This document shows positions 12,070 through 53,057 of a stretch of 53,058 nucleotides of DNA, piece after piece. The position numbers and the translations under genes are program-made. Origin of the DNA: a virus (Duplodnaviria > Caudoviricetes); the IMG/VR virus record IMGVR_UViG_3300035190_000328, positions 1-53,058 of that record, one strand, 5' to 3'. Numbering within the stretch: the stretch's first letter is position 1; every line of letters begins with the position of its first letter. The notes under the pieces were generated by a model, which worked only from the letters and a program-made list of their open reading frames with translations, was not told where the DNA came from and made no database searches.

Positions 12070-12109
12070 TAGTATTACCTACAATATTAATAATCTTAAA
12101 AGAAGAAAA

Positions 12110-12289: not shown

Positions 12290-12291
12290 TA

Positions 12292-14719: not shown

Positions 14720-14725
14720 CTAAAC

Positions 14726-14926: not shown

Positions 14927-14928
14927 TA

Positions 14929-32857: not shown

Positions 32858-35800
32858 TTATCTAGTCTCATAAGTCTTAGACTTAGCTTGTTCTGTTAAT
32901 TCTAATAACTCATCAATACCTGAGTATCCATTTATCCATTGTGCTGAATAATGGAATTGATTAGCTTTATCTCTAGGATTATTCTCCCCTACTGAAAAAT
33001 CCCTTATTTCATCTGCTGTATTAGACAATGTATTAGTAGCTTGATCTAATACTCCAATTAGAGGTAAAGGGTTCTTTAAAAGCCTTGTAAACTCTGATGG
33101 GGTATAAACAAAACCTACCTCTGCTAATGATTTATTTAAGAACCTATAAGTATTTCTAAGAGCTATATTTTGTTTATAATAAGGTTCATCATCATCTCCT
33201 TCTAATCCTAAAGCAAATATAGCAGTTAAAAGACCTATAATAACCCTTAAATCTCTGAGAGCATAGCCTATTTGCTTTCTTTTAATTTCCATGTAATCTT
33301 CAAAAGATGTTAATTCAGCAGCTTCAGGATTCTTATTAGCCCATTGTTCATATTTATATCTAGCTATTTCTTCATTAACCCTATTTTTATTCCAATAACC
33401 AAATGTTATTAAATCTCCTATTAGATTACCTATTTTAGGTAATACAGTAGTAGTTATATATTCAGATATAGTTTTAGATTGATCTTTGTAAAATTCTTCA
33501 ACTAAAGCTCTATGAGTACCTATATCTAAGTAATCTAAAGATTCATTATATCTTGTAGCACCAAATCTCTCTTGTAAAATACCTGGCATCCATGTTTTAA
33601 ATGTCATTAAAGATTTTAACAGGATATTACTTTGATAAGCAGCTACATCATCTTGGGACATAGTACCATAAGATTTTCTTACAAATTCTTTAATAGCCTC
33701 TCTTAATTGATTAAGTTTATTATAATAATTTTCAGAACCTTGTTTAAATTCACCTTCAGTTATCAAATCATAGGCTGATTTTGCTCCTTCTGGTAAATTT
33801 TTTAAGCTACGCAGTTTCCCTTTATCATCAAATCCATATCTTTTAGCTACCATAATAGCATTAGTACCTGATAACCATTTCTCACCTTGAGCAAAGAATA
33901 TTAGGAATGTGTGAGAACTAAATACTTTATTTAATACATTCTGAGAAGCTAATTGAGCTTTTAAATCATTTTGATTATCTGTATAAGGATTTACTTGGAT
34001 AAGAAAATCTGTAACTTTCTTATCTCTTGACCAAAATTCTTTTTCAGCTTCATAGAAATCAAATCCTAGTTTCTTAGCCATATTAGTAGAAGCCCATTTA
34101 CCTGCTATAGCTGATACTGCTGCTGGTATTACTTTAAAACCAAGCCTCATTTGGATATTCTTGTTATTAGCTGTATTAATAAACTTAGTTAGCCCTTTAC
34201 CTAATTTCTTAGTTACTGAAGGATCTAATTGTATTCCATATACTTTCTTATTAACAGCAGTAGTAAATATCTCTATAGCTCTTATTTTAGAGCTATTATT
34301 AGCATCTACAATAGGTTCTCCAGTAGGAGATTTAACAATCCTACCTAAAGCATCTGTTACCTCAAAATTATCAGCTAATTGTAAACCTACTTTTAATATT
34401 TCAATATCAGCCTCAACAGCCTGCATATTCTTAAAGTTATATACCATATTAGCAAATAGCATATAATCTTTAATTAAATCCTGACTTCTATCTGAATAGT
34501 TTATCTCTCCACTTTTATTTCTAAAAGGATTAATAAAATACTTAGGGATATGATGTCTAACTTCTTTTGTAGAAGGATCTATATCTCCAAATATAGTATC
34601 ACCTTGCCTTACAGCAGCTAAGTAAGTAAATTCATCTTTTAAAGCTTGGGTAGGATCCTCTCTCATTTTATCTAAGAAAGTCTTTCTAATCCAAGGATAA
34701 AAGTTACCTTTAATATCTAAATCTAAATATTCTTTAGATTTCTGATTAAAATCTAATAGATAATTATAAAGAGGTAATAATGCAGTACCATCTATCTTTT
34801 GATAAGCTTCTGAAGTATATTTAGCATAAGCTTCTTGGTTAGGTTGATAGTACCTTGATCTTAATTCATTAGTTTTAGCAGCTTCAAGATTATTCTCCTC
34901 TTCCCATTCTTCCATATATTGCTTAAATAAAGATTCTGCTTTAGAAGGATCTATTTCTCTAATAGGAGAAATATAATTTTCTAAGGACACTTCCCTATTT
35001 TTTTTTAATTCAGCGTACTTCTGTCTGGCATTAGGTTTTAATTCAAAATAGCTATTTATGAAATCTACATTGTTCTTATTAGCTTCTTGGTAAAATTCAG
35101 GAGATAGTCTTGTTATAAAATCCCCTTTATCATTTTTTAATAAATCTATATTTAATCCTTGTTTTTTAACCTCATTGTAAAGCTCTGTAAGCTTATTATT
35201 AAAGATTAAAACTTCATCAAAAGTTTTCTGTTGTTGTTGATTTAATATTCTATCTAAAGCTGTTAAATGAGGTACTCCTACATTTCTAAGAGGTACAAAA
35301 TTATCTAATACTGAGTTACTAGGAAGAATTTTAGGAGTTAAAACATGGTTATCTTCCATTAATTGGGAATTAATAGATTCAAATTGAGCTTCAATCTGCT
35401 CTAAATAAGTTATAATATCATCTTTAAGAGAAGCTATATTCTTTTTAAATTCTTCTTTTTGTTCAGAATCTTCAGCTTTTTCTAATATATATTTAGTTTC
35501 TTCTTTAATTATTTTATCAAAAGCTTTTAATTCTGTATAATAGTTTTGTAAATCTGTTTTAGATAGGTTATTAATATCTTTTAATCCACCTAAACTTAGC
35601 CTTACAGCATCTATTAAATTCTTTAAACCTTTATCTTTCATAGTATCTTCAATAGATTTCTCTAATTCATCTACTAAGAGTTTCATTCTTTCATGCTCTT
35701 TAGAACCTTTTTTTAGCTGCGCTAGTTTAGTTTCTCTATCTTTCTTTAATTGTATCTTAATTCTTAAAGCTTCATTTCTTGCTTTACTATCTGAATATTC

Positions 35801-36649: not shown

Positions 36650-36651
36650 AG

Positions 36652-37314
36652 CTATTTGCAGGTAGAGTCTATAGACCCTTTATTAATAGTTTGTAATAGT
36701 GTTATTTGTTGGTCTTTATTTAACCAATCTAAATTATTGTAATCTTCTTTAAAAGAATTTAAAGCATCTTCATAAGTAGGATATATTTCTCCTGCTACTT
36801 CAAACTGATTTTCTCCTAATTGGTTAATACTATTACCTACAGTAGTTACAGGTAAATCTATTTCTACACTATAATTATTAGCAAAATCTTTAGTAACAGT
36901 AAATACTTCAGGAAATGCAGATTCTAAGTTTTTCATAGTATCTACATTAACCTGTAATTTCCTAGTATTATAAGCTTTCTTTTCTTCTTTATCAAACTCA
37001 ATACCTCTGGTTATAGTATATTTACCTGTTTTATTAAATACAGGTTCATATTTATGAATTATACCTACTAGGTTATCTAGTACTTCTTGTAAAGTAGTTC
37101 CATTATTAATAAGTTCTGCAACTTGTTTAGCTTGATTATTAGCTTTAACCTGCATATATTTAGAATACTCAGTAATAGTTGGATAAACATAGTTAATACT
37201 ATCTTTACCTGTTCTAAACTTAGTATAAGCTATAACTCCATCTTCTGCTACTTTAGTACCAGCCCATAAAGCTAAACTTCTAAACAATGGTAATCCTTTA
37301 TTTACACAACTCAT
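36652..37314 (-). CDS. small cargo-module protein
   Basis: 220 aa, MSC...TCK, coupled to both neighbours. Confidence 0.75.
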   Translation of the reverse strand: MSCVNKGLPLFRSLALWAGTKVAEDGVIAYTKFRTGKDSINYVYPTITEYSKYMQVKANNQAKQVAELINNGTTLQEVLDNLVGIIHKYEPVFNKTGKYTITRGIEFDKEEKKAYNTRKLQVNVDTMKNLESAFPEVFTVTKDFANNYSVEIDLPVTTVGNSINQLGENQFEVAGEIYPTYEDALNSFKEDYNNLDWLNKDQQITLLQTINKGSIDSTCK

Positions 37315-40300
37315 TATAAACAGTCTTTAACAAATGTAGTAAAATCTTCTGAATCTATAGTAGTATCTTGTTGAGCAGCTCTTTGTTTTAAATGATCTAT
37401 AAGAGCTTCATCATTAACATAGTTAGTAGCTATTTCAGGTTTATTAGCCTTAATCCAATCTAAAGTTTCAGTAACTTTTTGCATATCTACTTCTAAAACA
37501 GGTTTAGCTGCTACAGCAGTTATCTCAGAATCTAAAGTAGATTTATTATTAGTAGAAATCATTACTAACCTATTAGAAGGTCTTGAAACTGCTACATATA
37601 AGCTTTTGTTCTTATTAACTGTAGAACCACCATTAGTAGAACCTAGTATATTATCTTCAAAAACATATACATTATTATAAGTAGAACCTTGAGCTTTATG
37701 AGAGGTTATAGCATACCCATATTGAAGATTAGCAAAATTAGCTTTTAAAGCAAATGCTAATTGTTTATCAGTTTGGAATAAACTAGCCACATCTTTATTA
37801 AATTTCTCTTTACTACTTTCTGCAATAGCTAGTATTTTTACTCCGTAAGCTACCATTTTTAAATCTGGTAGTATTTCACCTTCTTCATTTAATAACTCTA
37901 ATTCTACTACATTATAGTTAAAATTAAAAGATCTACTGCCCATTTTAGCTGAGAATACACTAATACTTCCTGTAAAGTTATTTATGGCTTTTAAAGAATG
38001 TATTATGTAATCATCAGAATTATATATTACAGGTACAGGAACTCCTCCTAAATCTGTAGTATATGTATCATAAGCAGTTATAAATTCTCCAACATTAAAT
38101 TGGTTTTTAGCTTTTTCTCCCCAAAGTTTCTCTCTAATCTTAACATTAAGGTTTTTAACACTTAAAGGAGAACTATGGTTCTCATTATTAAATGTCACAG
38201 CTTTAACATACTCAGGGTTATTATTAGCTTCTTTAATATCTTTAACCATACTATCTAAAGCTTCATCTACATTATTAGTAAATAGTAATGTAGATTGGCT
38301 AATAGGATCTATTTTATTAAATCTAAAACCTTCAGGTATAGCTATTAATTTAGGAGTTTTACTCTCTATATTTCTAGCTACTAAAGTTCCAGCACCTATA
38401 ATAGGGCTATTAGCAGCTTGTCTCATTTTTTCAACTAAAGTATATTGATTTTTAATATCAAATACAGGACTATCTACATCCTCACCTACAGGAGGTAATT
38501 GTGCATTATCTCCCATAAATATAACTTTAGCTGAAGGTTTTTTAAGCTCCATAATTTCTTTATAAATATTTGGAGAAATCATTGAAGCCTCATCTACTAT
38601 AATTAAATCTAATTGTTTAATAGGTACTTTACCTTGCTGTCTAGCATATAAATCTGGAGTAAACTCTCCTGTAGATTCATTAAGTTTAATAGCTAGTGCT
38701 GATGCTACAGTAAAAGCATTCTTTTTACCTATAGATTTACCTAAAACTTTTTTAGCTTTATGTGCAACAGTAATACCTCCTATTCTACCAGTATAACCTT
38801 CAATAGTTTTTTTGATAATAGTAGTTTTACCTGTACCACCTCTACCTATTAGAGTAAATTCTGTAGCAGGAGATCTTAAAAACCCATCTAATAAATCAAG
38901 AGCTTGTTGTTGCCCTTCATTAGCAAAAACTCCTGGGAATAATTCATATTTATTCTTTTTAACTCCTTCCATATTTGTTGAAGGTAAAGTTACATAATTT
39001 TCACCTTCTATAATAGGAGTATAAGCATGATAGTAATATTTATCTCCAATAGCTCCTGTAGGTAAGTATTGTTTACCTTGGAATGGGAAGAATACTCCAT
39101 CTATGACAGCATGAGACCTTGTTAGTAAGTATACTTCTTTCTTACTATTACCTACTAATATTATAGGGCCTTTTTGATATATCTTATCACTATCTAAAGG
39201 TTGTCCTGCTTGATAACCATCTCTTGAAACATATTTTCTTAATCTTTTTTCTACTATACCATTTTGTTGTAGAAACTGTTCTACAAATTTATGAGGTATT
39301 ACAGGTTCCATATTCTTTAAAGCCTGTAAAGACATATCTATATATTCCTTTGGTAGTAACTTCTGATAACTAATAGGGCTATCAGAAATACCTGATTGTA
39401 ACAATTGAGCTATAATAAGTTTCTTAGCAAAAGGTTGAGTTACAGGATTATCATATAATTCCTTAAATCCTTCTGCTAATATTTCTTGTTGTACAGGGTT
39501 AACCCTTTGAGATACTAATTTAATATTATAAGTACTTCTAGGTTTAATATCCCCTTTGTCTTTACCTTCTTCTGGTAATAGAGGTATCATTTCCTGTAAG
39601 AATTTATTATCAGGAAACTTATCTTTTAAATCTAATAACTCAGTCATTAACTCACTAGTTCTTAGTATACTAGAGTATTCACTTAAAGTTTTACCTGAAT
39701 CTAAAGGAGATGTTATTAATCCAAAAGTTGCTAACTCCCTATCAGCTCTTTCTAATATAGTAGTTAAGTTATTAGCTCCTGAGAACCTATATAAATCATA
39801 GATAATATCCATAATTTCAGGCCCTCTAAGGTATTTATCAAAACTCACAAACTGCATACCTGAAGACCAAATCTTATCAGCTTCCATAGCAGTATTTTTA
39901 AGTTCTTTTAATAGGGTATCTTCAAATAGGTTAGGTAAGTTTTTAAAAGATTTATCTTCTAAAACATCATAATACATCTTTCTTTTAATCCAAGAATCTA
40001 CAAGTGTTTTACCAGCTTGTTTAGTATCTTGATTAGAAACCTGTTGTATCTTATTTAATTGAGAACCTGCTCTATTATATAACTCAAAGCTGTATAGTAC
40101 CTGAACTTGTTGTTTTAACTCATCTAAAGACATAGTATTCATATCTTTAGACATATTATCTTTAAGTTCTGCTTTAGTTATGTAGTTAACAAGAGTTTTT
40201 CCTTCTTTAAGTTCATCATAGTATTCAGCTAAATCTAATGCTTCACCATCTTCTATTTCTTGCTGAGTAAGATCTACTTCACTTCTAAGCTTAGACATCT

Positions 40301-43300
40301 TAGATATTAAACTATTTATTATTTTATAACCTTTCTCTTTACCTTTAAAGTTTAAGATTGAGTTATTTTTATCTAGTAAACTAGTATATTCTCTAATTAT
40401 AGGTTGGTTAAGAAAGTAAATAACCTCATCAAGAGGTATTCTCTGTCTTAATAATATATTAACTACACCAAAAGTATTAAAACTTACATTAGTGTAAGTA
40501 ATATAATCATTACCTATTTTAGAAACATCTACAGCAGCAGATATAAATTGTTTTAATATAGCTGAAATCTTTTGTTTATTATCTATATCATATACTGAAT
40601 CCATAGGATATTCAGATAGTTTTTGTATACTATCAAAATATAGTGTATATTCTGGACTATAGTATGATATATCTGCTTGTTGAAATAGAGCATGTGAAGT
40701 TGTAGCTAGTGCAGCAGGGCCTACTAATTGTTTAAACTTCAATAGTTTATTTCTAGTAGCTACTATCATCATAGGAGATAATATCTTAGTATACTCATAA
40801 GATTTAATGCCCCCTAAACTTTGTCCAGTAGCGGCTATTACTTCTAAAGCTACTTTCTTTAAATCATCAGTACTATCTGAAGTTAATAGGTTTTCTTTAG
40901 CTTCTTCTGAAGTAACTACTTGAGCTATAATATCTATAACCTCATTCTCAGCTATATACTGATCATAATTTCTTAAAAGATTATTTTGTTCTTTTAGCTG
41001 AAACAATAATTTCTGGATTACAGGATTATTATCCATTTCCTTAAATTTATCTTCAGCATATTTAATATTTTCTAAAGAAACTTCATCATCTTCTACTTGC
41101 TCATCTAAAAACTCTTTGTAATCTTTAAATTCTTCTTTATAAGGTTTTAATAAACTCTTAGTAACCTTAATATCAATTAATAAACTAGCTTTAGATTGTA
41201 ATACTTTAACTTGGTTTCTAACAGTATAATAATGTGGAACATAAGTTGTAAGTTTATCCACGTCAAAGTCAGAACCTGCTTTAATAGTTATACCATTAGG
41301 TACTACAATTACATTACCTAATGTAGGTGCTAGAAATTCCTTAACTAAAACAGCTTCAATAGCATTTTGACCTTGGGTAGGTATCCTATAAGGCACTAAA
41401 TTCCATTCTTCTCTAAACTTAGGTAATACCTCTTTATTAAATTTGTTTAACTTATCCTCAAAAGTATCTCCTTCTAATTCTAATACTAAAGGCATTAGTT
41501 TTTGAGGTAAAGCTATTTTAACTTCAGCATAAGAAACTCCATATCCTGATTCAGCTTTCTCATAGAATTTAAGGGAATTATCTAAATCAGGAACCTGAAT
41601 AAACATTTCCCCTGGCATATCTCTTTTAACAACTTCTCTGTTATAAAAAGACATTAGGTTATTCTCTAATTTAACCTTCTCAGCCATTGCATCAGCTCTA
41701 ATTACATCTTGTGATAGAATAGCTTGTAATTGTTCTTTAAAGGTCTCAGAAGTCTTCCTTTGAAGCATAGCTTCAGTTACTTCTTTCTTTAATTTATCTT
41801 TATCTGTAAATAAATAAACCTTGTTTTCTCCAATACCTTCTATTGTAATAGATAGATTATCTAAGAATTTACTAAACTTTTGAGCAGTAATATCATTTAA
41901 CAAATTATTATAGGTATCAATTACTTCTTTAGTAACTTTAACATCACCATTAGCATAGTGTAATTCAGGATCTTTAACAATATCAACAAAATCTAATTTA
42001 GACATCTGAGTACCTAAAGTTACTCTCTTATGTTCTTCAGGAGAAGTTTCTAAATGCTCCCCCATAAAAGAATAATTAATTCTTTGTGTTACATTGTATT
42101 CATCAGAATCAATATCTTGAGGTTCATTTATATTATTACCTTTAGAGCCTGAAGCAAATACACCTAAACCTATTTGAGCTTTCTGCATTTTAGCAGCCAT
42201 CTCAACTAACTTAGGCATACTATATTGCATACTTCTTGGAAGTACAGGCATTACTGCCATTTTATATAAATCTGTTATATAATACCCAGGAGTATAATCT
42301 TCTCCATAAGCAGGGCCAGCATAACCATATTTCTTAACTGCTAAAGCAAATGTTTCATATATACCCTTAGCAGGATATACATCTGTTAAGGTATTTTCAT
42401 AATCATATAAAGATTGAAAATCTTCATTCCATTGACCTAACCTTAACATCATACTTCTAATAAAATCTAAAGTACCTATACCAGAAGCATCTGCTAAATC
42501 TCCTTTTTCATTACTATCAATAGCTCCTTTTATAAACTCTTGATAAGTACCTGTTATATCTTTAAATACAATTGTACTTTCAAAACCATCTTCCATTTTA
42601 CCATCTGCTCTTTTATATAAAGCATTGATAGATTGATTTAAAGAAGGGCTATTAATAGCAGGTTTCTTAGATGAGGTAAACAAGGTAAACCTCTTAATAG
42701 GATCTTTAAAGTTATTTAAAGGGCCTGTAAATAAGTTAGATTGCTCATAAACACTTTGCCAATGCTTAATCATATAGGTTCTAAAGTTATCTTCAGATTC
42801 CTTATCTAAATGATTAGTATCATATTTAGCAACCTTATCTTTAAAAGCAGCTACTTCATTAGTTATAAATTCTTCTACTTTAGATTTAACTAAAGCATAA
42901 TCTTCTAGATTTTCTCTTGAGTAATCTAAAGGATTTTTCTCAAGAACCATAACTCCTTCAAAAGTTACTAAATGTCCACTAGGAGTAGCCTTATCTCTAG
43001 TACTTTGAGGTAAATTAGCTACATATTGTATTTCATTAAATACAGCTTGCACTAAAGAATCTATAGAAGGTTCTTCAGGCATTTCTAATTGCCAAGCTAA
43101 TTCTACACCCCTATCAGCAGATGGTAATACAGGATATATATTATTCATAGTAGCCCTGTAGTGAAGCATAGCCTGAGCAGCTTCATCCATATCTGCATAA
43201 TCTGTAGGTAATCCTAAAGAAGATTTAGCTTGTATCATATTAACAAGCTTTCTGTTAGATTTAATCCATAGAGAAGATTCTGTAGGGAAATTACCTAAAT

Positions 43301-46300
43301 AATCAGCATTACCTTGTTTAATAATACTATCTCCTATAGCATAAGCTGTAGGTAAACTTAAAGCATATCTTTTAGCATTCTTAGAATCTAATACATTTAA
43401 ATCTGTAAATTCATCATTATATAATGTAGCTTGTTCAGCTAAAGAATTAATTTCTTTATTTATAGATAATCCATTTTTATCAAAAAAATAATCTACAGGA
43501 GTATCTTTAGTTAATCCTCTTAAAGCAGCATCTATCTTAGATAAGTCTCCTTTTTTAGAATATTTACTATAGTTTTCACTATCAGGAAATCCTAGTAAAT
43601 CTAATAATTCTTGATTAGTAGATTTATCTAAAGCTTCTTTTAATTTATCTAATTGAATTAATAACCTACCTTCTGGAGTTAGTTTAACTAAAGGAGACCT
43701 TGATAAATTAGCTCTCCAAATATCTTTAACTTTATTAATATTTCTTTCCTTTTCAAATATAATTTTAAAAGGCTCTTCTCCAGATTTTATATCATTAAAC
43801 TGCATAACAAGAAATTCTTGTTTAGCTTTAGCAAATGATTGTACAAATTTTAATTGTAGATTTAATTCATCTTTTGTTTGAGGAATTTTATCTAATTTAA
43901 ACCATTCAATTAGTTTATTAATCTCAGGTCTTTTCTCAGCATATTTTTTAAGTTCTGTTAATTGACTTTCTAAAGTAAAGTTATTAGCTAATTTAGCATG
44001 TAAAGCATGCAGGGTTTTAACATAATCTACAGCTTGAGGTAATCCTACACTATTTAAAACTACTTTACCTTCCTGATTAATAACAGGTAAAGCTGATATA
44101 ATAAGTTTAACAAGACTATCATCTAAATCCTCAACTGACGTTTTGTCAGAATCTTTAATACCTAATCTATCTTTTACTTCAGTTTCCTCAATTTCTTCTT
44201 CAGGAAGACTGACAAATTGTCCTATAAATTCTTTATGCTTTACAAATACTTTCTGTAAATCCTCTTTACTAAAAGTATCTTTAGCTACAAATTGTAACAT
44301 TCTAGGCCCTACAAAGCTTATATAAGAATCTAAATCCTTAAATACACCTTGTCCTATTAATTTATCTAATTCAGAAGATAAGCTATTTAAACCTACGGTT
44401 TGGTTGAGTTTACTTATAATCAAAGCATGGTTAGAAGCTACTGTCATATTAATAGCATCTGGGCTTAAACTATAAGCATCATTACCTGATTGAGGTATTA
44501 TATTACTACCTTGATAATAACCTGATAATATCTTATCATAAAAATCATTTAATGTATTACCACTAAATAACTTCTTAATAAAATTCCATATTCTTTCAAA
44601 TATACTTAACTCTTCAGGACTAGTTTGTTTAGTATTAGCATAGGTTCTAAAATCTTCAGCTAATAATTCTTCTTCTAAGTATTCTGTAGATTTATCACCA
44701 TATAGATCCCTTAATTCAGCAATTCTATCTTGATAATCTTCTCTATTCCTAATCCCTTTTAATAAAGTTTCTCTTTCTTGAGGAGTAGTAAACAACCTAA
44801 ATACTCTATGAAAAGCTTCATGGTATTCAGTACCTTCAGGACTTTGAGTACTAACAAGTATTTTACCATCTTTAGTAAAGGCTCCAAAAGCTTTACTTTG
44901 AATAAGTTTATTTACTACAGATACATAGTTATTTACATAATCAGAACCAAATAAATTAGTAAGATTTTGTTGTATTTGATCTATATTTCTAAGTATAGGA
45001 GAACCTATAGTAGATAATTGAATAGAACCTGTATCTCTAGCTTCATCTACAGTAACTTCATTCCATGTATTACCATATTCATCAGTAACAACTTTAGCAT
45101 TATAACCTTGTTTCTTCAAAACATTTGCTATAGTGTTTTCATAGAAATTATAAATAGGTTTTAAAGCTGCTAATCCTTCAGGCCCATTAACTCTTTCAAG
45201 CTCTGCTTTAAGTTGAGTTATTTCTATATCAAATTCTGTTTCTTTATCTTTTTTTAATTTTTCAACAGTTTCTTTAGAACCAGATTCCATATAAGAATAC
45301 CCTGTACTTCCATTGGCTTCTTTTGTTTTAAGAATATAATCTCCATTAATAAGTTGTGAACTTTGTCTGGTTAATCCCGCCTCATTTAAACTAACTACAC
45401 TATACTGTATTTTATCTCTTTCTATTTTTTTATTTTCAAGATCTTTAATCCTATCTTCTTTTTCTTTCTTAAACTCTTCTAAAGTACCATGCCCCTCAAC
45501 TTTACTAGCTGTATTACCTGTTGGAAATAATACTTTCTCATATCCTTTTTTAGCACTATCTTGTACAATAGATTTAACAAAGAATGTTACCCAAGCATTA
45601 TCTTTATTTAGGAGTTGTAAGAATTTATTTTGAGGAGATTTAATATCTTTAATTTTATATAAAGAATCAAATGCTTTAAAACTTTCCTCACTACCTACTT
45701 CATAATTAGTTTTTTCTACCCAACTATAATAAGCATCCCATTTAGCTTCCTGTAAATCTTCTCCTAAATTACTGGTAAATCTATCTTGACCTTCTAAACT
45801 ACTTTTATTTATTAAATCAATCCTATCTCTACCTTTCTGAAATAAATCAGATTGTACTTCTAGTATTCTACGGGTTTTAGGATTTGAATATTTAGCTTTT
45901 CTATATTCTTCTTCTGATATAATCTCTCCATTTTTCTTATGTTGAAAACCTTTACCTAAAGAATATTCTTGTGTATATTTATTTCCAGCAATTTCAAAAT
46001 CTTTTTCTTTATTTTGAATAGACATAGCTTGTTTAACAAAACTAGCTTCATCACTTCTAAACCAACCTATACCTTGATCCGTGCTGAAAGCACCATGTCC
46101 TTTAATAGAAGGAGTAATATCTGGAGTTTTTATTTCATTCTCTGTATAGTTAGTACCCCCAGGTACAGTTAGATTAGAATAATGACTTGTAGGTTTTTGT
46201 AATTCAGTAATTAAATAAGTTTCAGCTTCTTTTTCAGTTTTAAAAGATTTTAAAGGCATTGTAGTATAAATATCTACAATAGACCATCTTTTTTCTCCAT

Positions 46301-46829
46301 TATATTCAGTTTCTCTAATATTTAAATCTTTATTACCTCCTCTAGTAACTTCAGTTTGTACTGTATAACTATAATTAGTAATAATATCTAATATAAGATC
46401 TTCTACAGTATCATAATCCTTACTATCTATAAGATCTTTAATAATAAAAGCTTGTTGTTTACCTGCTATATTAGATACTTCAGATATAAACTTATCTTTA
46501 TTAGTTTTAGCAAATCTCTTGAATATCTGCTTACCTTTCTCTGTATTTAAGAAAGTAACAGACCTTAGTACATAATTAATAGCAAATTCTTGAGCTACAG
46601 GAACTAACATAAAAGCTGATTCACTATCAGGTTTTACATTATCTAAAGGATTACCTGTAACTTCTTGTTTAGTAAAGTCTTCTATAGGTTTATTACCATA
46701 AACTTCATCTAATATAGACATTCCCTCATCTAATAGCCAAGCTTTAAATGATTCTTCAGGCATACCTGTTTCAGGAATAATAGCCTTTATTTTAGGATTA
46801 TTCCCTACATACTTTACTATACAAGCCAT
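37314..46829 (-). CDS. virion-delivered RNA polymerase polyprotein with a zincin and a C-terminal SF1 (RecD-like) helicase
   Basis: YRIPTQ and GSDFDVDKL (41256-41270) crAss vRNAP motifs; HEAFH; GRGGTGKT, DEASM, GD.AQLPPV, HKAQGST and YVAVSR. Confidence 0.9.
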   Translation of the reverse strand: MACIVKYVGNNPKIKAIIPETGMPEESFKAWLLDEGMSILDEVYGNKPIEDFTKQEVTGNPLDNVKPDSESAFMLVPVAQEFAINYVLRSVTFLNTEKGKQIFKRFAKTNKDKFISEVSNIAGKQQAFIIKDLIDSKDYDTVEDLILDIITNYSYTVQTEVTRGGNKDLNIRETEYNGEKRWSIVDIYTTMPLKSFKTEKEAETYLITELQKPTSHYSNLTVPGGTNYTENEIKTPDITPSIKGHGAFSTDQGIGWFRSDEASFVKQAMSIQNKEKDFEIAGNKYTQEYSLGKGFQHKKNGEIISEEEYRKAKYSNPKTRRILEVQSDLFQKGRDRIDLINKSSLEGQDRFTSNLGEDLQEAKWDAYYSWVEKTNYEVGSEESFKAFDSLYKIKDIKSPQNKFLQLLNKDNAWVTFFVKSIVQDSAKKGYEKVLFPTGNTASKVEGHGTLEEFKKEKEDRIKDLENKKIERDKIQYSVVSLNEAGLTRQSSQLINGDYILKTKEANGSTGYSYMESGSKETVEKLKKDKETEFDIEITQLKAELERVNGPEGLAALKPIYNFYENTIANVLKKQGYNAKVVTDEYGNTWNEVTVDEARDTGSIQLSTIGSPILRNIDQIQQNLTNLFGSDYVNNYVSVVNKLIQSKAFGAFTKDGKILVSTQSPEGTEYHEAFHRVFRLFTTPQERETLLKGIRNREDYQDRIAELRDLYGDKSTEYLEEELLAEDFRTYANTKQTSPEELSIFERIWNFIKKLFSGNTLNDFYDKILSGYYQGSNIIPQSGNDAYSLSPDAINMTVASNHALIISKLNQTVGLNSLSSELDKLIGQGVFKDLDSYISFVGPRMLQFVAKDTFSKEDLQKVFVKHKEFIGQFVSLPEEEIEETEVKDRLGIKDSDKTSVEDLDDSLVKLIISALPVINQEGKVVLNSVGLPQAVDYVKTLHALHAKLANNFTLESQLTELKKYAEKRPEINKLIEWFKLDKIPQTKDELNLQLKFVQSFAKAKQEFLVMQFNDIKSGEEPFKIIFEKERNINKVKDIWRANLSRSPLVKLTPEGRLLIQLDKLKEALDKSTNQELLDLLGFPDSENYSKYSKKGDLSKIDAALRGLTKDTPVDYFFDKNGLSINKEINSLAEQATLYNDEFTDLNVLDSKNAKRYALSLPTAYAIGDSIIKQGNADYLGNFPTESSLWIKSNRKLVNMIQAKSSLGLPTDYADMDEAAQAMLHYRATMNNIYPVLPSADRGVELAWQLEMPEEPSIDSLVQAVFNEIQYVANLPQSTRDKATPSGHLVTFEGVMVLEKNPLDYSRENLEDYALVKSKVEEFITNEVAAFKDKVAKYDTNHLDKESEDNFRTYMIKHWQSVYEQSNLFTGPLNNFKDPIKRFTLFTSSKKPAINSPSLNQSINALYKRADGKMEDGFESTIVFKDITGTYQEFIKGAIDSNEKGDLADASGIGTLDFIRSMMLRLGQWNEDFQSLYDYENTLTDVYPAKGIYETFALAVKKYGYAGPAYGEDYTPGYYITDLYKMAVMPVLPRSMQYSMPKLVEMAAKMQKAQIGLGVFASGSKGNNINEPQDIDSDEYNVTQRINYSFMGEHLETSPEEHKRVTLGTQMSKLDFVDIVKDPELHYANGDVKVTKEVIDTYNNLLNDITAQKFSKFLDNLSITIEGIGENKVYLFTDKDKLKKEVTEAMLQRKTSETFKEQLQAILSQDVIRADAMAEKVKLENNLMSFYNREVVKRDMPGEMFIQVPDLDNSLKFYEKAESGYGVSYAEVKIALPQKLMPLVLELEGDTFEDKLNKFNKEVLPKFREEWNLVPYRIPTQGQNAIEAVLVKEFLAPTLGNVIVVPNGITIKAGSDFDVDKLTTYVPHYYTVRNQVKVLQSKASLLIDIKVTKSLLKPYKEEFKDYKEFLDEQVEDDEVSLENIKYAEDKFKEMDNNPVIQKLLFQLKEQNNLLRNYDQYIAENEVIDIIAQVVTSEEAKENLLTSDSTDDLKKVALEVIAATGQSLGGIKSYEYTKILSPMMIVATRNKLLKFKQLVGPAALATTSHALFQQADISYYSPEYTLYFDSIQKLSEYPMDSVYDIDNKQKISAILKQFISAAVDVSKIGNDYITYTNVSFNTFGVVNILLRQRIPLDEVIYFLNQPIIREYTSLLDKNNSILNFKGKEKGYKIINSLISKMSKLRSEVDLTQQEIEDGEALDLAEYYDELKEGKTLVNYITKAELKDNMSKDMNTMSLDELKQQVQVLYSFELYNRAGSQLNKIQQVSNQDTKQAGKTLVDSWIKRKMYYDVLEDKSFKNLPNLFEDTLLKELKNTAMEADKIWSSGMQFVSFDKYLRGPEIMDIIYDLYRFSGANNLTTILERADRELATFGLITSPLDSGKTLSEYSSILRTSELMTELLDLKDKFPDNKFLQEMIPLLPEEGKDKGDIKPRSTYNIKLVSQRVNPVQQEILAEGFKELYDNPVTQPFAKKLIIAQLLQSGISDSPISYQKLLPKEYIDMSLQALKNMEPVIPHKFVEQFLQQNGIVEKRLRKYVSRDGYQAGQPLDSDKIYQKGPIILVGNSKKEVYLLTRSHAVIDGVFFPFQGKQYLPTGAIGDKYYYHAYTPIIEGENYVTLPSTNMEGVKKNKYELFPGVFANEGQQQALDLLDGFLRSPATEFTLIGRGGTGKTTIIKKTIEGYTGRIGGITVAHKAKKVLGKSIGKKNAFTVASALAIKLNESTGEFTPDLYARQQGKVPIKQLDLIIVDEASMISPNIYKEIMELKKPSAKVIFMGDNAQLPPVGEDVDSPVFDIKNQYTLVEKMRQAANSPIIGAGTLVARNIESKTPKLIAIPEGFRFNKIDPISQSTLLFTNNVDEALDSMVKDIKEANNNPEYVKAVTFNNENHSSPLSVKNLNVKIREKLWGEKAKNQFNVGEFITAYDTYTTDLGGVPVPVIYNSDDYIIHSLKAINNFTGSISVFSAKMGSRSFNFNYNVVELELLNEEGEILPDLKMVAYGVKILAIAESSKEKFNKDVASLFQTDKQLAFALKANFANLQYGYAITSHKAQGSTYNNVYVFEDNILGSTNGGSTVNKNKSLYVAVSRPSNRLVMISTNNKSTLDSEITAVAAKPVLEVDMQKVTETLDWIKANKPEIATNYVNDEALIDHLKQRAAQQDTTIDSEDFTTFVKDCL

Positions 46830-47308
46830 TATTTAAGGTATTGTTGAATAAATAATTGATTAAACTTAGTAGGTTCTAAGTCTTTAGTAGTATCTACTAA
46901 TCCTGACCAATAACCTATAGCATGTCTTTGAATCTTAATAAACTTCTGTAAGAACTCAAAGGTAGTTAATTCCTCATCTAATACAGAATTAGCTACTAAT
47001 TCATAAGCATCTCTTACTACAATCATTAAATTAGAAGCTTTTTGAATTATATCTATCAAAGATGTAAACTCTGGTTTAGTAGTATCCAATGTAGGAAACT
47101 CTACACCAGCTTGCATATCTAATAGATAAGATTGTAACTTTTGTGTATGTAAAATCTCATCATTAGCTTCTTTTATAAAGTATTGATAAGCAATACTATA
47201 ACCATTCTGAGCAGCATAGTTAGCTGCATAGTTAAAGAATAAATGTGTTGTATATTCAGCTTTTATTAAAGCTGCAAATGCTTTTACTGTACTTTCTTTT
47301 ATGAACAT
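46829..47308 (-). CDS. ferritin-like protein (degenerate ferroxidase site)
   Basis: 159 aa four-helix pattern: IKAE, GY....YF..EA.DE..H..KL..YL.D and TFEFLQ.FI..Q. Confidence 0.8.
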   Translation of the reverse strand: MFIKESTVKAFAALIKAEYTTHLFFNYAANYAAQNGYSIAYQYFIKEANDEILHTQKLQSYLLDMQAGVEFPTLDTTKPEFTSLIDIIQKASNLMIVVRDAYELVANSVLDEELTTFEFLQKFIKIQRHAIGYWSGLVDTTKDLEPTKFNQLFIQQYLK

Positions 47309-50300
47309 ATCCTGTCAAAATCTGTATTGGTTTCTAATAAGTTATCCACAAAGTTAGGATATTTTTCATCAAATTGTTTACTTAACTGAGAAATAACCTG
47401 ATTGCCTCTACTCTTAGCTCTGGGATTAACTTTATTCTTTAAAGCTTTATACTCAGAAAGTAATGGATTAGATACTTGAGATGCTTCTGCTTTAGTTTCT
47501 AAAGCAGCTAGTTCTGCATCATATTTAGTATTTAAAACACCATCTGTAAAATAACCAATATTTAAACTAGATGGTAATTGTGTTTTTGCAACATCTTCTA
47601 TAAAGTTTTCATCTAAATAGTTTTCTAATTTATCTTGTAAGGTTTTTCCATTGGTATTTTCAAGAGTAGTTCTATCAATTGCTCCTAAAAATAAATCTAA
47701 ATATCCTCTGTGAGGACTTTTACCTTCAGCTAAATCAAATAATATTTGTTTTAATTGTTCTTTATTAACAATACCTGTAGTAGAACTTACTCCAGCAGGC
47801 ATTAATAAATTATCATTATAAATATTTATAGCGTTCCCTTTTGAAGTGATGTGTGTTATAAATAATAAATTATCAGGTAAATTATTTATTCTTCTTTCTA
47901 TTTCAGCTTTTTTAGCTTCTGTACTACCTTCAGTAGAAGTACCTTTAGTAGCTTCTGTTATTAGCTTATCATACCTATCATATATTTCATTGTAGGCATC
48001 TAATTCAGCTTGCTTTAGTTTTTTTAATTCTTCTAATCTTTTATCTCTTTGTTTTTGTTCTACTTGTTTTTGTCTAACTTCTTGTATTTCTTGTGAGGAT
48101 AGTCCTCTTTCGTCTAAAACTATAGGAGCTAAAATATTTAAACCTTCTTTTTCAATTATTTCATTGTAATTATTTTCTATCCCCTCTAATACCTTATCTT
48201 TATTAATTACGCCATCAACTTTATAATCATCTATGTTAGGTATAATCTTTTTAACTTCTTCTTCTTCTGCTGCTCTGTATTCAGCTATTTGTTTTTTAAC
48301 ACTTTCTTTATTATTTACAGAAGTTTCTTTTATAAAATTTAATACAGATAAAGCTCTTTTATTAATTTCATCTTCATAGTTACCTATAGTTTTATTTTCT
48401 CCTTGAAGCTTCTTAAATTCTTCAAAAGATAATAAAGAATGTTGATATTCATGTTCTATTACAAAATTTTCAAATTCTTGGTAACTATTAAAAATATTTT
48501 CAGGTAAAGGAATAGATTTAGAACCATCTTTTTGAGTTCTTGAATTTACCCAAGCTTTTTCTGTAAATTTTTGTTTTAAAAAATTCCTATTTAAGCTAAT
48601 AGTATTAGTTTTTCTATCATAATTAGCTGCCCCTATTTCTCCAGTCTGTGTAATTATGTTAGCAGTATTTACTATTTTAATGCCTTTATAGGGTTTTTCT
48701 ATAACTTTCTCTCCTTTAGCAATAGGACTATTTAAATTAAAAGTTAAATACCTATTTATATTTTCACCATCAAGATTAGCTTTTACTAATAAAGGAATTT
48801 CAGATTTAGTTCTATTTTCTTCACTTAGTAAATAATGTTTATATGAAGGATAAGACTTAGTTATAAGTTTATCTCCTTGCATAGTAACAGCTTCATAAGA
48901 TGTTTTAGAGTTTAAAAGCTTGTTATTGATATTATATACCTTATTAGCTAAAGATTGTAATATTGTATCTTTAGATTCTTCTAGAGAATCTACATTATTA
49001 TAAAAATTGCCCCCTATATTAACAGCACCTGCTTTAGTAAAATATAAAGAATAAGAAGGATATTTAGCATTTTGTCCAACATTAACTAATTCTTCTAATA
49101 CATCTCTATAAGATTTACCTTTAATAGTTTCTTTAGAGCCACTTAGAACACCTTTAATTAACTCAAAAGCTGCCAAAGCATCTGTTGGACTTAAAGTATT
49201 TTTAAATGTGCTTAGAGGGTCTCCTATTGCATTATAAGTATATACATTACCTGGAGTAGCTTGAATCTGGGATTCTCCTACCCTAATAATTCCAGGAGTT
49301 TTTTCAGTATATAATACAAGTTCTATAGTATTAATATCTAAACCTGTAGCTGTATTAGCAGGTAAGCTTTTTAATTCTCCTTGTACACCTTTACTTCTTC
49401 CTGTAATAGGTAATAAAGTCTTAGTACCTTTAGCATTATTAGCTAATAAAGTTTGTTGAAAAGCATTATATTGACTTCTAGCTAAAGCTAAAGCTTGTTT
49501 TTGTTTAGTTTCATTATCTTTAAATTCAGGATAAGAAAACCCATCCCAAGAACTTTCATGTAATGGGGTATATACAGGTAATCCACTATCATCTAATATA
49601 GGATTACCTTCATTATCTACTACTACAGCTATAGTAGTTAATCTATTACCTTTAAGTGCCTCAGAATCTGTAAGATTATCTTGTACTTGAGAAGCCCCTA
49701 CATAGAAATCTACACCTTGTAAAGGATTATCAGGAGTTATTACTAACAACTTATGATTTTCTATTAAGTCTTTTAAAGAGGTATTATTAATAAAAGCATA
49801 CCATCTTTTAGAAGATTCAGAGTTTTGAGCAGTTTGATCTCCAGATGTTTTACCATAGCCTATCCATATAGGGGGTTTAGGAGATTGGTTATAAGAACTT
49901 ATCTGTTCAGCAGTTAATAAAACAGGAGTTTGTATAATATCTGTAACATCAACCCCACCTTCAAATGTTTCTCCTGAAATTCTATCAGGTTGTTCATTAG
50001 CTTGTTTAGCTTTTTCTCTAGCTAGATAAAATTCTGATAACCTACCAAAAGCAGCTTCATCTCGTAAAGCTTCTAAATCAGGATTACTAGCTATAAACTC
50101 AGGTGTTAAAGGAATTTGTTTACCTGAATGTGTAGTTAATACAGGTTTCCCATCTATAGTCTGTAAAGTATAAGCTTCTTCATTAGCCTTACTATAAAGA
50201 TATACAGGTTCTTCTATAGTATCTAAAGATGTTACATCATAATAATCTGATAATTTAGCTACTAGTGAATCATTAATTCTTTCATCAAAAGATCCTTTAT

Positions 50301-52596
50301 TACTATTAATTATCTTTGACATTTCTTTAGAATAGGCTTCTGGGCCTTGCAAAGCAGATTTATATAAATCTAATACTTGATTTTTATATAAACTTAACCC
50401 TGCTAAATCTTCATAAGCATCTTTTAATTTAACAGCATCATGGGGAGCTATAATATTTTTATCTATAGCTTTCTGAAGAACTTCAGTTAACTCTTTTAAT
50501 TTATTATAAGATTCTTTTGGGTTGCTTAACTTTAATAAAGCTAATGGCATATTAGCAGTATTAACTTTATCCCCAAAAAATTCTTTTATCTTAGCTATTT
50601 CAGGAATCTCTTCTTCATAGTTACTTAGTAAGTCTGTTAATATAGGACTTACTTCTTGCATAACCTTAGACATTCTACCAGTAGCTTCTTCTACTGAAGC
50701 TAATTTAGAAGCTAAATCTACAGTAGCATCTTCTCCTATAACATTATGCAGGGGTTTTACAATTTCCCAAGCTCTTTTTATTTTAGGAAGGTATTCTTTT
50801 AAATCTTTTTGATTTTTAGAAATCTGTTCTATTAAATCTGTATCAGATATATCTAAATTATCTATATCTGTACCATCTTGATTTTTCTGTTTTAATAAAT
50901 CTCTTATTTCTGCTGGAGTAAATTCTGTTTGCATTAAGTCTAAGAAATCTTTTTCTTTTCCTAAATCTAAAGCAGTTATATAATCAACAGCTATTTTTTG
51001 AGCTTCTAATGCTTTGGCTTTACCTATATTACCTTTTTTATATTCATCTTCAATATCTCTATCAAAAGATGTACCTGCTATAAAAGCTTTTAGTTGACTT
51101 TCTTTTCCAGTATTTCTTTTATAAATTTCATTTAAAATCCTACCAGCCTCTTCCCCCATTTTCTTTTTTTCTTGAAAATCTCTTCTGGCTTCAAATATAC
51201 CACCAGTCATTTCAAGACTTCTTTTACCAGTTTCCTGATTTTTCTTTATATTAGGTAAGCCTAGCCCACCCATCAAAGCTCCTATAGCAAATTGTTCAGC
51301 AGCTTCTCCACCTAACCAAGTTTTACCTTGTTGATTTTGAAAAGTATCCTGAATAACATCTAAAAATGAATTTGTTAATGCTGCAAAATCTTTTTTACCT
51401 TGAGTATCTTGAGATCTTTCAGCATAAGTTTTAGCTAGTTTATTAATTTTATACTGCCCCCATTCTTCAAAACCTTCTCTTAAAGCTCCTTTAGAATACC
51501 CAAAACCATAACCTAATGCTTTTCTAAAAGCATTTTGCTCTACTTTTTTAAATCCAGTACTAGGATCTAGTATATAACTTTTAGCTCCTTTTCTTAAAGC
51601 TTGGTTAATAGTATTTCCTTTGGCAAAAGCTCCTTTAAATTGCCCATAATTAGAAGCCATAAGGATAGCCATATTTCCTAAAAAATCTACATTACCCGCA
51701 GTTCTAGCTATACTATCAGCATCTTTTTCAGAATACCCTTTAGCTATTAAATCATCATAAGATTCATTATATGTACTATTAGCTTCAGTTTTAGATTCTG
51801 ATATAGCTGCAATACCAGAACCTAGTAATTGTCTTCCTAAATTAGTAGATTCTTTCCCTAATGAAGCTATTTGTGCAGCTCCTCTACCCATATAAGCTAA
51901 TCCTTCTCCAGCTTTAGCATATCCAATACCTCTTTTAGCAACATTAGTAGAAATTTTACCTAATGTACTAAGATTTTTAGCCTCTTCTCCTGCTAATGCA
52001 AGAGCTTTAGCTCCTTTAGTAGCTAACATAGCATCACCTAATCCCATAGTAGCTATAGTACCTAAAAAAGTACCTGCTGCAAAGCCTGTTGATTCTAAAG
52101 CACTTCCCCAAAAATTAGCATCATCTAAATTTTCGTACCAGTTATTATCTTGATATTCTTGAGTTTGGTAATTAGGTAAAGCTTTATCAGCATAATCTTC
52201 TAATTTAGATAAACCATTAGATAGTGGGTCTTTCCAAAACCCAGATAAAAATCCTGTAGTAGGGTCATTATCTAATAAATTAGCAGCACCTGAACCTAAT
52301 GAGCTTAGTAACCCTACTGTAGTATTTAGAAAAGATGTTCCTAATTTAACAGTACCTTTTAATAAACTATTAGCTAATTTATCAGGTACTGATTGATTTA
52401 AAGCTAATAATTCAGCAGGATCAGTTATAGGATAAGCTTGATTTATATATCCTTTATCTTTTACTCTATCAAGTAATTCTACTCTATCTGAATCTACAGA
52501 ACTGCTTTGAGGCAATCCTTTAGTAGATAAAACTGAAAAAGCTGAAGCTGGTTTTTCAGCATTTTTATTTATTACACTAAATATAGATGGCCTCAT
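47299..52596 (-). CDS. large virion cargo/ejection protein with Gly/Ala-rich membrane-like helices and inserted domains
   Basis: 1765 aa; hydrophobic N-terminal region, EGFEEWGQ motif and HEYQH; ends ICS. Confidence 0.8.
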   Translation of the reverse strand: MRPSIFSVINKNAEKPASAFSVLSTKGLPQSSSVDSDRVELLDRVKDKGYINQAYPITDPAELLALNQSVPDKLANSLLKGTVKLGTSFLNTTVGLLSSLGSGAANLLDNDPTTGFLSGFWKDPLSNGLSKLEDYADKALPNYQTQEYQDNNWYENLDDANFWGSALESTGFAAGTFLGTIATMGLGDAMLATKGAKALALAGEEAKNLSTLGKISTNVAKRGIGYAKAGEGLAYMGRGAAQIASLGKESTNLGRQLLGSGIAAISESKTEANSTYNESYDDLIAKGYSEKDADSIARTAGNVDFLGNMAILMASNYGQFKGAFAKGNTINQALRKGAKSYILDPSTGFKKVEQNAFRKALGYGFGYSKGALREGFEEWGQYKINKLAKTYAERSQDTQGKKDFAALTNSFLDVIQDTFQNQQGKTWLGGEAAEQFAIGALMGGLGLPNIKKNQETGKRSLEMTGGIFEARRDFQEKKKMGEEAGRILNEIYKRNTGKESQLKAFIAGTSFDRDIEDEYKKGNIGKAKALEAQKIAVDYITALDLGKEKDFLDLMQTEFTPAEIRDLLKQKNQDGTDIDNLDISDTDLIEQISKNQKDLKEYLPKIKRAWEIVKPLHNVIGEDATVDLASKLASVEEATGRMSKVMQEVSPILTDLLSNYEEEIPEIAKIKEFFGDKVNTANMPLALLKLSNPKESYNKLKELTEVLQKAIDKNIIAPHDAVKLKDAYEDLAGLSLYKNQVLDLYKSALQGPEAYSKEMSKIINSNKGSFDERINDSLVAKLSDYYDVTSLDTIEEPVYLYSKANEEAYTLQTIDGKPVLTTHSGKQIPLTPEFIASNPDLEALRDEAAFGRLSEFYLAREKAKQANEQPDRISGETFEGGVDVTDIIQTPVLLTAEQISSYNQSPKPPIWIGYGKTSGDQTAQNSESSKRWYAFINNTSLKDLIENHKLLVITPDNPLQGVDFYVGASQVQDNLTDSEALKGNRLTTIAVVVDNEGNPILDDSGLPVYTPLHESSWDGFSYPEFKDNETKQKQALALARSQYNAFQQTLLANNAKGTKTLLPITGRSKGVQGELKSLPANTATGLDINTIELVLYTEKTPGIIRVGESQIQATPGNVYTYNAIGDPLSTFKNTLSPTDALAAFELIKGVLSGSKETIKGKSYRDVLEELVNVGQNAKYPSYSLYFTKAGAVNIGGNFYNNVDSLEESKDTILQSLANKVYNINNKLLNSKTSYEAVTMQGDKLITKSYPSYKHYLLSEENRTKSEIPLLVKANLDGENINRYLTFNLNSPIAKGEKVIEKPYKGIKIVNTANIITQTGEIGAANYDRKTNTISLNRNFLKQKFTEKAWVNSRTQKDGSKSIPLPENIFNSYQEFENFVIEHEYQHSLLSFEEFKKLQGENKTIGNYEDEINKRALSVLNFIKETSVNNKESVKKQIAEYRAAEEEEVKKIIPNIDDYKVDGVINKDKVLEGIENNYNEIIEKEGLNILAPIVLDERGLSSQEIQEVRQKQVEQKQRDKRLEELKKLKQAELDAYNEIYDRYDKLITEATKGTSTEGSTEAKKAEIERRINNLPDNLLFITHITSKGNAINIYNDNLLMPAGVSSTTGIVNKEQLKQILFDLAEGKSPHRGYLDLFLGAIDRTTLENTNGKTLQDKLENYLDENFIEDVAKTQLPSSLNIGYFTDGVLNTKYDAELAALETKAEASQVSNPLLSEYKALKNKVNPRAKSRGNQVISQLSKQFDEKYPNFVDNLLETNTDFDRICS

Positions 52597-52598: not shown

Positions 52599-53057
52599 TT
52601 ATTTATTAAATAATAAACTTTCTCCTAAATCTTTTTTAACTGCACTTAAACTTGTGTATTTAGAAGTTACCCCACCATTAGAAACTATATATTCTTTACC
52701 TACCCTTTCAATTTTAAAATCTTCTCCTCCAATTTTTATATCAGTTTGCCCATAAGTATCTAAATCTCTAAAATTAGAATCCAACCCATTATTTTCAAGA
52801 TATATATTAGTTAGACCTATAATACCTGCTTCTTGCTGAGTAATATCAGGACTTTTAATTAAATTGGTAAACATACCTTCTAATACAGGAGATTTTTCTT
52901 TATTCATTTTAATTTTTTCTTCTGTAAAAACAGTAGGACCATCTTTAGTTTTTTTAGTTTCTACATTTAAATATACATTTCCATCAGCATCTATTTTAAA
53001 ATGGGTTGTCTCTGGAGTAATTGAATAATAGCCTTTGTATTTTTCTCCTAAAGGAAT
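52599..53057 (-). CDS. 3' end of a virion-module protein (partial)
   Basis: The frame stays open from the window edge, so the 52907 ATG is probably internal. Confidence 0.7.
   Translation of the reverse strand: MPLGEKYKGYYSITPETTHFKIDADGNVYLNVETKKTKDGPTVFTEEKIKMNKEKSPVLEGMFTNLIKSPDITQQEAGIIGLTNIYLENNGLDSNFRDLDTYGQTDIKIGGEDFKIERVGKEYIVSNGGVTSKYTSLSAVKKDLGESLLFNK

Follow-up and report, generated by a model that had tools for sequence, protein, structure and literature searches.

Matched cysteines at the ends of crAss-type virion RNA polymerase module proteins suggest an end-to-end tie

A cluster of genes in a 53,058-nucleotide (nt) stretch of phage DNA (Duplodnaviria; Caudoviricetes; IMG/VR record IMGVR_UViG_3300035190_000328, positions 1 to 53,058; hereafter the window) is, judged by homology, a packaged crAss-type virion RNA polymerase module, the counterpart of gp67/66/65 of phage phi14:2 and gp47/50/49 of phage crAss001. 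The proteins of this module are nearly devoid of cysteine (Cys); according to the sequence data, Cys pairs occur at precisely those points at which a gene boundary breaks the module thread, and nowhere else. Each pair probably takes the place of a peptide bond and joins the proteins into a single thread, most simply via disulfides. We also lean toward the wider claim that, across Crassvirales and allied phages, the separate module products are covalently concatenated from C-end Cys to N-end Cys, giving an unbranched thread of 5000-6500 residues that would be functionally equivalent to the one giant chain of fused relatives and would be reduced apart in the cell.

The window encodes five co-directional minus-strand genes, i.e., the first or "head" protein p1765, the ferritin-like p159, the middle protein p3171, the short link protein p220, and the last or "tail" protein p1263. 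Leaving p159 aside, these proteins contain six Cys in 6419 amino acids (aa; 0.09%) and no internal Cys at all. All six are located at residue 3 or at the penultimate residue, three at C-ends and three at N-ends, and in gene order the chain ends read ..RICS / MACIV..KDCL / MSCVN..STCK / MSCII... A preceding sequence-only reading of the window had reported this count and placement, a ferritin free of Cys, and the absence of Cys from the first N-end and the last C-end; translation reproduced each of these observations. The open reading frame (ORF) upstream of p1765 likewise has no Cys at its C-end, consistent with the Cys-less N-end of p1765.

Compared with the background of the phage, the depletion is extreme. 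In 46 plus-strand ORFs of the window 120 Cys were counted in 8381 aa (1.43%), a rate at which ~92 Cys would be expected in 6419 aa (Poisson P(≤6) = 1e-31), and the probability that all six fall within three residues of an end is 2.7e-15. On DNA level, TGY triplets are frequent outside the reading frame, the module having 58 and 308 of them in the other two frames versus 6 in frame. As just one of the six codons is traceable to gene overlap, namely Cys1764 of p1765, whose codon overlaps the ATG of p159, the pattern is real and far beyond chance. The control set of 236 other mechanically called ORFs of at least 150 aa from the loci compared had 1.47% Cys, with N-end Cys in 8.1% and C-end Cys in 8.9%. 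Virion proteins that are not ejected are Cys-rich, with, e.g., 14 Cys in the 327 aa of the tail tubular protein of cr50_1 and 22 in the 1503 aa of Carjivirus gp49. Within the module even the helicase domain of p3171 is Cys-free, and 15 stand-alone Dda-like helicases with 42-52% identity to it contain 64 Cys in 8068 aa (0.79%). On this comparison, the domain looks like a captured replication helicase subsequently purged of Cys. The stand-alone helicases comprise ~550 aa, many of them beginning with MNKYELFP, and have a normal Cys content.

The overlapping Cys1764 codon, together with the ATG-RST-TGT-RTA common to the N-ends of p3171, p220, and p1263, could raise the suspicion that the Cys pattern is a by-product of junction DNA or translation signals and has no role in the protein. 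We regard this as scarcely credible. The remaining five Cys codons overlap no signal, intergenic spacing varies from a 1-nt overlap to 170 nt, and the Cys positions vary as well. The N-end of the head protein and the C-end of the tail protein also have start and stop signals, yet no Cys. Furthermore, the genes lie on opposite strands in some phages (convergent order, crAss001-like phages). The head gene of Kehishuvirus, IAS virus, and DAC15 runs convergently to the other two, yet the ends match in homologous order; since the rule holds with the head gene on the opposite strand, an artefact of junction DNA is ruled out.

Assignment of the window genes to the head/polymerase/tail module follows from the DFDVD site and the homology of all three proteins. 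The GSDFDVDK motif at aa 1854 of p3171 was aligned by eye with GSDFDIDK at aa 1361 of g066 from phi14:2, the polymerase structure of which has reportedly been solved, and is identical, again aligned by eye, to the motif at aa 1483 of the gp50-like protein of Kehishuvirus. By tblastn, a piece of p3171 matched the "putative RNA polymerase" of crAss001-like phages (E-values of 2e-7 to 9e-10), and p1263 matched an "RNA-polymerase subunit" of IAS virus (E 6e-7) as well as cr108_1. The iterated tail profile built from p1263 takes in the tail proteins of the loci L002, L021, L023, and L024. Among the proteins gathered by a corresponding profile from aa 1-760 of p1765 are the gp47-like ones of Kehishuvirus, IAS virus, and DAC15, as well as the N-ends of fused giants. 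General resources contributed less: p1765, p220, and p1263 retrieved nothing from PHROGs or Pfam, a PDB sequence search with p1263 gave 0 matches, and scans of viral contigs with the single proteins p1263, p159, and P0016 returned no relatives, whereas scans with an alignment and with P0034 did. The proteins gp67, gp66, and gp65 of phi14:2 and gp47, gp50, and gp49 of crAss001 are reported in virions in the accessible parts of two sources (PMC10172136; preprint 10.1101/2020.03.07.982082), and the notes of the phi14:2 record likewise give gp67, gp66, and gp65 as virion proteins. It is by homology to these virion proteins that the window proteins may be labeled cargo or ejected proteins.

Extension of the analysis to relatives covered further loci (L###) and proteins from homologue searches (P0###). 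Chain proteins were listed by hand for 23 loci, comprising the window, 9 named phage records, and 13 IMG/VR contigs; the named records cover Steigviridae, Suoliviridae, Intestiviridae, and an unclassified Leptolyngbya phage. Three loci are not part of the junction list, namely L006, represented by its tail gene only, L007, which is identical to L008, and L020, which is partial. The list also skips small ORFs foreign to the module such as the ferritin-like one and takes gp33 of crAss002 from an internal MSC. Across the resulting 41 junctions, 38 had Cys on both sides, and one each was none/none, yes/no, and no/yes. Carjivirus communis, cr3_1, and cr8_1 each add one Cys/Cys junction, bringing the count to 41 of 44 junctions in 26 loci. 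The first protein carries an N-end Cys at only one of the 23 loci (L008, where a partial ORF further upstream ends in ..NCS), the last protein carries a C-end Cys at none, and internal Cys amount to 52 in 123,136 aa (0.042%). In phi14:2, the sole Cys of g067 is its last residue, g066 has Cys at 3 and 2179 only, and g065 has Cys at 3 only. In crAss001, the candidate pair between gp50 and gp49 consists of a Cys near position -9 and Cys 5. Such counts across relatives had been proposed as a check by the sequence-only reading, and they found the end Cys conserved and paired in gene order. The 125-kb cyanophage Leptolyngbya phage Lbo-JY46 (L025, PP438436.1), which is not classified in Crassvirales, harbors the module at 2723-15629; the sole Cys of its 1552-aa protein is the last residue, and that of the following 2748-aa protein is residue 4.

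Individual families showed the same conservation. For p1263, three other homologues were present in a collection of 5.8 billion proteins (55, 49, and 24% identity), each with its sole Cys at residue 3. Among the 120 giant p3171 homologues listed (1783-5496 aa, the window's own among them), a Cys was located within six residues of the N-terminus in 84, of the C-terminus in 92, and of both in 68; most had no further Cys, with a median Cys content of 0.064%. A profile combining p220 with its L004 homologue retrieved 37 proteins from 1.84 billion representatives. This family starts with M[SAG]C[IV]NK, and an N-end Cys was present in 36 of its 37 members (the remaining one being a 48-aa fragment), a C-end Cys in 29, and both in 28. 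Over all module proteins, the N-end Cys is located at position 3 (63 cases), 4 (27), 5 (23), 6 (6), or 8 (1), with Ala or Ser as residue 2 in 89 of the 120 N-ends with Cys. The C-end Cys is located at position -3 (65), -2 (27), -1 (16), -4 (5), -5 (2), or -6 (1). Overall, retained Cys are separated from a C-end by 0-8 residues or fall within residues 2-8 of the following N-end. By these alignments and counts, the end-Cys rule applies generally to the crAss-type virion polymerase module and is deeply conserved, with end Cys persisting at identities as low as 20-25%.

The coupling of end Cys to gene breaks and fusions was analyzed with local profiles of the head domain (three sub-families) and the tail domain. 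The scored set of 209 sequences combined 124 fetched proteins with the window's six and with Cys-poor ORFs (at least 400 aa) from L001-L025; window duplicates and open-ended rows were removed. Proteins with a head domain at their start never had an N-end Cys (0 of 31), compared with 120 of 135 without that domain. Similarly, a C-end Cys was found in 1 of 56 proteins ending in a tail domain (the one from L006) and in 115 of 117 lacking it (Fisher P = 1e-22 for N-ends and 1e-41 for C-ends, with rows that are not independent). Head+middle fusions (P0017, P0026, P0027) have a C-end Cys only, middle+tail fusions (P0106, P0111, P0120, Lbo-JY46, crAss002 gp33) an N-end Cys only, and head+middle+tail proteins (P0008, P0079) no end Cys; the giants P0076, P0079, P0102, and P0108 contain zero Cys throughout. 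In the head+middle fusion of L019 the seam is without Cys. Cys 3010 of this protein was considered as a relic of the seam and rejected, being located ~200 residues past it and beside the DFDVD motif. A quick tail-domain tree with long branches requires that full fusion originated three or more times and middle+tail fusion four or more times; on this tree, the coupling of Cys pairs to breaks has arisen repeatedly.

The short protein p220 adds a further break. In the sequence-only reading it was a new module that had been slotted in by acquiring both tags. However, homology links p220 to the N-terminal domain (~150 aa) of the unsplit tail proteins P0266, P0272, P0276, and P0278 from other lineages, which combine p220 and p1263 in one chain and have an N-end Cys only, with none at the inner boundary. 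On this homology, p220 is better read as a split-off piece of the tail protein that gained a new Cys pair at the break. What stands of the earlier proposal is that other middle proteins with both Cys tags do occur, i.e., a 496-aa protein in L005 and a 901-aa protein in L009. In the closest relative, the equivalent of p3171 looks split before the helicase, with P0006 as the upstream part; a search of shorter proteins for the one following P0006 found none from that contig. As for the head-to-tail chain, the central proposal of that reading, the comparative evidence supports it well, with end Cys that are conserved, paired, and absent from the first N-end, the last C-end, and fused seams; the chain itself is unproven.

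Breaks and fusions also bear on two other explanations. According to the first, the end Cys tie each protein to a third partner (the portal, the inner capsid, or its own second copy) and anchor the cargo instead of joining neighbors. The disulfide bonding of tail and portal-vertex proteins in crAss001, described in the accessible part of PMC10172136, would fit such anchoring. So would the lone C-end Cys of Carjivirus communis gp47, which has no partner in the next gene. This 857-aa protein (L027, BK010471.1, 12787-17924) has its sole Cys at the penultimate residue and is followed by the Cys-free gp46 (857 aa); it represents an unpaired end Cys outside the polymerase module. Anchoring predicts neither equal numbers of C-end and N-end Cys, nor their absence at the first N-end and last C-end, nor their loss at fused seams, and the fully fused forms lack end Cys though anchoring would still be needed. 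We therefore consider a third partner improbable. According to the second explanation, the Cys pair drives a ligation of the protein-splicing or native-chemical-ligation type, in which the overhangs are removed and a true peptide bond restores the polyprotein. The two Cys of a junction are placed like the first intein residue and the +1 extein residue of a splice site in the familiar chemistry, the overhangs are very short (0-8 residues), and fused and split forms interchange freely in evolution. Nevertheless, ligation appears very improbable: Pfam detected no intein or Hint domain in p1765, p3171, p220, or p1263, the N-end Cys is not the first residue, and the available text of PMC10172136 reports the crAss001 proteins at separate sizes in virion mass spectrometry.

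According to the reading we favor, the module proteins would have been purged of Cys like others that need to thread through a phage tail, and the two Cys of each junction would form a covalent tie, most simply a disulfide, in the assembled virion. This tie would substitute for the peptide bond found in relatives with fused genes. The separate products of the window would then act like a single unbranched thread of ~6400 residues that is packed and delivered at a 1:1 ratio and in a constant order, until reduction of the ties in the host cytoplasm releases the separate subunits. The purge of all remaining Cys would avoid wrong cross-links, and the Cys pair could be understood as an evolutionary patch allowing a giant ejected protein to split, or modules to join, without losing the continuity of the thread. 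The location of the Cys as near to the ends as possible (residues 3-5 and -1 to -3) would suit the need for an unbranched thread more than an ordinary interface. A disulfide is favored because there is one Cys per end, no conserved metal ligand is nearby, and crassvirus virions contain disulfides, structural ones being described for crAss001 in the accessible part of Bayfield 2023 (PMC10172136). We infer the contact of the two Cys, the disulfide nature of the tie, the threading, and the release by reduction from these comparisons.

A shared metal ion or another non-disulfide clasp might join the same ends, with the ferritin-like protein supplying or controlling the metal. This clasp would account for the pairing and for the break and fusion data equally well as a disulfide, and it requires no oxidant in an anaerobe. 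The ferritin-like gene is present within the module in two distant lineages: p159 (Pfam PF00210, E 1.2e-7) has homologues in the same slot in the distant IMG/VR lineage L014-L018 (E 7e-5 to 7e-14). Between the middle and tail genes of L009, an additional 117-aa ORF (9123-9476) appears Dps-like by eye alone. Any involvement of the ferritin-like gene in the redox state or metal supply of the module is conjectural. On the other hand, there is one Cys per end with no conserved His, Asp, or second Cys adjacent, and two thiolates alone, with no further conserved ligand, would make a poor site for common metals. In addition, L004 and the named crassviruses examined lack the gene yet still follow the Cys rule. 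Taken together, we consider the metal clasp unlikely.

Several observations weigh against the disulfide-tied thread. At three junctions the pairing fails: gp054/gp053 of cr108_1 (none/none), gp055/gp056 of IAS virus (yes/no; the ORFs overlap and the record contains ambiguous bases), and the no/yes junction of L005, where the upstream fragment is 5'-open and has its only Cys 30 residues from the end. The L006 tail protein ends in Cys, the only tail protein to do so. Among the proteins scored, 15 without a detected head domain lack an N-end Cys; 8 of these begin inside longer near-relatives and represent truncated gene calls, and 7 remain, i.e., the crAss002 start, three proteins of 4000-5100 aa, in which a head domain may simply have been missed, and three unexplained cases (P0063, P0116, P0123). 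P0116 is without both end Cys. The middle+tail proteins of Intestiviridae retain 6-11 internal Cys, which could compete for the pairing. The hosts of cultured relatives are anaerobes with a reducing cytoplasm, and neither a thiol oxidase nor a thioredoxin was found among the 10 other window ORFs scanned. The putative linkage is derived from sequence comparison, the counts are not phylogenetically independent, the tree is a quick one with long branches, and the thread would require each C-end to find its own N-end by some means.

The records concerned show some local peculiarities. In cr108_1 (L001, 13834-14125), gp053 is annotated with a non-ATG start after a gap of 290 nt behind gp054. The gp055 and gp056 genes of IAS virus (L023, 5019-14001) overlap by 11 nt and appear to be a single gene interrupted by a frame error. 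The last codons of the L006 tail gene (4300-4340) lie within the terminator hairpin after an A-rich run, and the close relative L005 ends differently; the terminal Cys probably results from an indel or assembly slip. In crAss002 (L022, NC_055828.1, 9270-9370), gp33 is annotated to start 32 codons upstream of an internal Met-Ser-Cys that matches the N-end motif, so that the annotated start is probably too far upstream.

Coordinates of the module and of further features are given in Table 1, the Cys codon positions having been verified. HExxH motifs were found by pattern match alone, with no Pfam match, as HEYQH at aa 1382 of p1765 and HEAFH at aa 670 of p3171; they may be zincin-like protease sites, as the literature proposes for the module. 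The gp45-like cargo proteins encoded upstream of the module in some relatives have close internal Cys pairs and no end Cys.

Table 1. Coordinates of module genes, their Cys codons, and further features in the window and in compared loci
Feature	Location	Strand	Remarks
p1263, last ("tail") protein	window 32858..36649	-	gp49/gp65-like; terminator-like hairpin after gene
p1263 Cys 3	window 36641-36643	-	sole Cys; C-end without Cys
p220, short link protein	window 36652..37314	-	
p220 Cys 219	window 36658-36660	-	
p220 Cys 3	window 37306-37308	-	
p3171, middle protein	window 37314..46829	-	virion RNA polymerase (gp66/gp50-like) fused to SF1 helicase
p3171 Cys 3170 of 3171	window 37320-37322	-	Cys only here and at residue 3
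SF1/Dda-like helicase domain	window 37557..38921	-	p3171 aa 2637-3091; Cys-free; Pfam AAA_30, AAA_19, UvrD_C_2
DFDVD catalytic motif, two-barrel virion RNA polymerase	window 41256..41270	-	p3171 aa 1854-1858
p3171 Cys 3	window 46821-46823	-	
p159, ferritin-like	window 46829..47308	-	Cys-free; outside Cys rule; conserved slot between head and middle genes
p1765, first ("head") protein	window 47299..52596	-	gp47-like; no N-end Cys
p1765 Cys 1764 of 1765	window 47305-47307	-	sole Cys
Upstream Cys-free ORF	window 52599..53057	-	runs off window; 102 aa from first ATG
tRNA-Arg (TCT) gene	window 8873-8946	+	
Spore-photoproduct-lyase-like protein	window 29143-29994	+	PF20903, E 5.6e-12
DUF4031 protein	window 31221-31712	+	
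p159 homologue	L014 9516-9989		
p159 homologue	L015 9507-9989		
p159 homologue	L016 9480-9977		
p159 homologue	L017 3613-4107		
p159 homologue	L018 9517-9990		
gp45-like protein	L002 35618-38155	-	Cys pair 393/401
gp45-like protein	L021 2072-3334		Cys pair 369/378
gp45-like protein	L024 26215-28713	-	Cys pairs 211/219, 273/281

Structural studies, in their accessible parts, leave open how folded proteins of 150-350 kDa exit the crassvirus head via a channel of 25-50 A, and likewise in which order they exit and how the host gets the right ratio (PMC10172136, PMC13434306). If true, an end-to-start tie would be a simple physical answer, with one thread, one threading event, and a fixed order, and it would explain the free switching of the module between fused and split gene forms. 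The end Cys can also serve as an annotation rule, placing the start of crAss002 gp33 at the internal MSC and flagging truncated gene calls. The phage group in question is the most abundant one in the human gut, and it includes cultured members, which makes the tie directly testable.

The matched end Cys are apparently an unreported, new feature of a known system. By title or abstract, a literature search retrieved no paper on end cysteines of these proteins, the phi14:2 work being covered as a preprint and supplements lying outside the scope. In the accessible parts of the sources, the word "cysteine" is absent from PMC10172136, and the strings "cystei" and "disulf" are absent from both the preprint 10.1101/2020.03.07.982082 and a 2026 paper on phage N4 (PMC13434306). 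According to the same portions of PMC10172136, gp47, gp49, and gp50 are cargo for which partial unfolding is necessary, and the exit order is left open; virion samples both reduced and untreated were analyzed in that study. Fusion of the three proteins into one giant in some phages is described there and in the preprint, the accessible part of which considers fused forms probably cleaved and does not suggest a joining of split forms. With the module of phi14:2 and crAss001, the window shares homologous proteins in the same order of head, DFDxD polymerase, and tail; it differs from them in that the polymerase adds a helicase, a 220-aa piece is split from the tail protein, and a ferritin-like gene is inserted.

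That ejected proteins can be depleted of Cys has been described before for N4-like phages. In the Schitoviridae ejection operon (N4 gp50-52, DEV gp71-73), the giant ejected polymerase and its companions are nearly Cys-free, for which passage through the envelope in an unfolded state is given as the reason in the accessible part of PMC11445570. The N4 and crAss-type polymerases are termed fundamentally or structurally distinct (PMC13434306, accessible part). As in Schitoviridae, the Cys content of the window module is far below that of the other proteins of the phage (the 0.09% versus 1.43% given above). In the N4 ejection proteins gp50, gp51, and gp52, however, suppression is total, with 0 Cys including the ends, whereas the crAss-type module keeps exactly the junction Cys. 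A comparable logic is found in protein toxins of the A-B type, in which two chains are held by one disulfide, one chain is translocated unfolded, and the bond is reduced in the target cytosol. This likeness would be one of shared logic and not of homology: the toxin is one product nicked by a protease, whereas here separate genes would be joined, with ties that are serial and located at the extreme ends. The fused relatives of ~5000 aa, single polypeptides containing all three parts, resemble viral polyproteins. Viral polyproteins are made whole and then cut, whereas the split forms of the module would be made apart and then tied.

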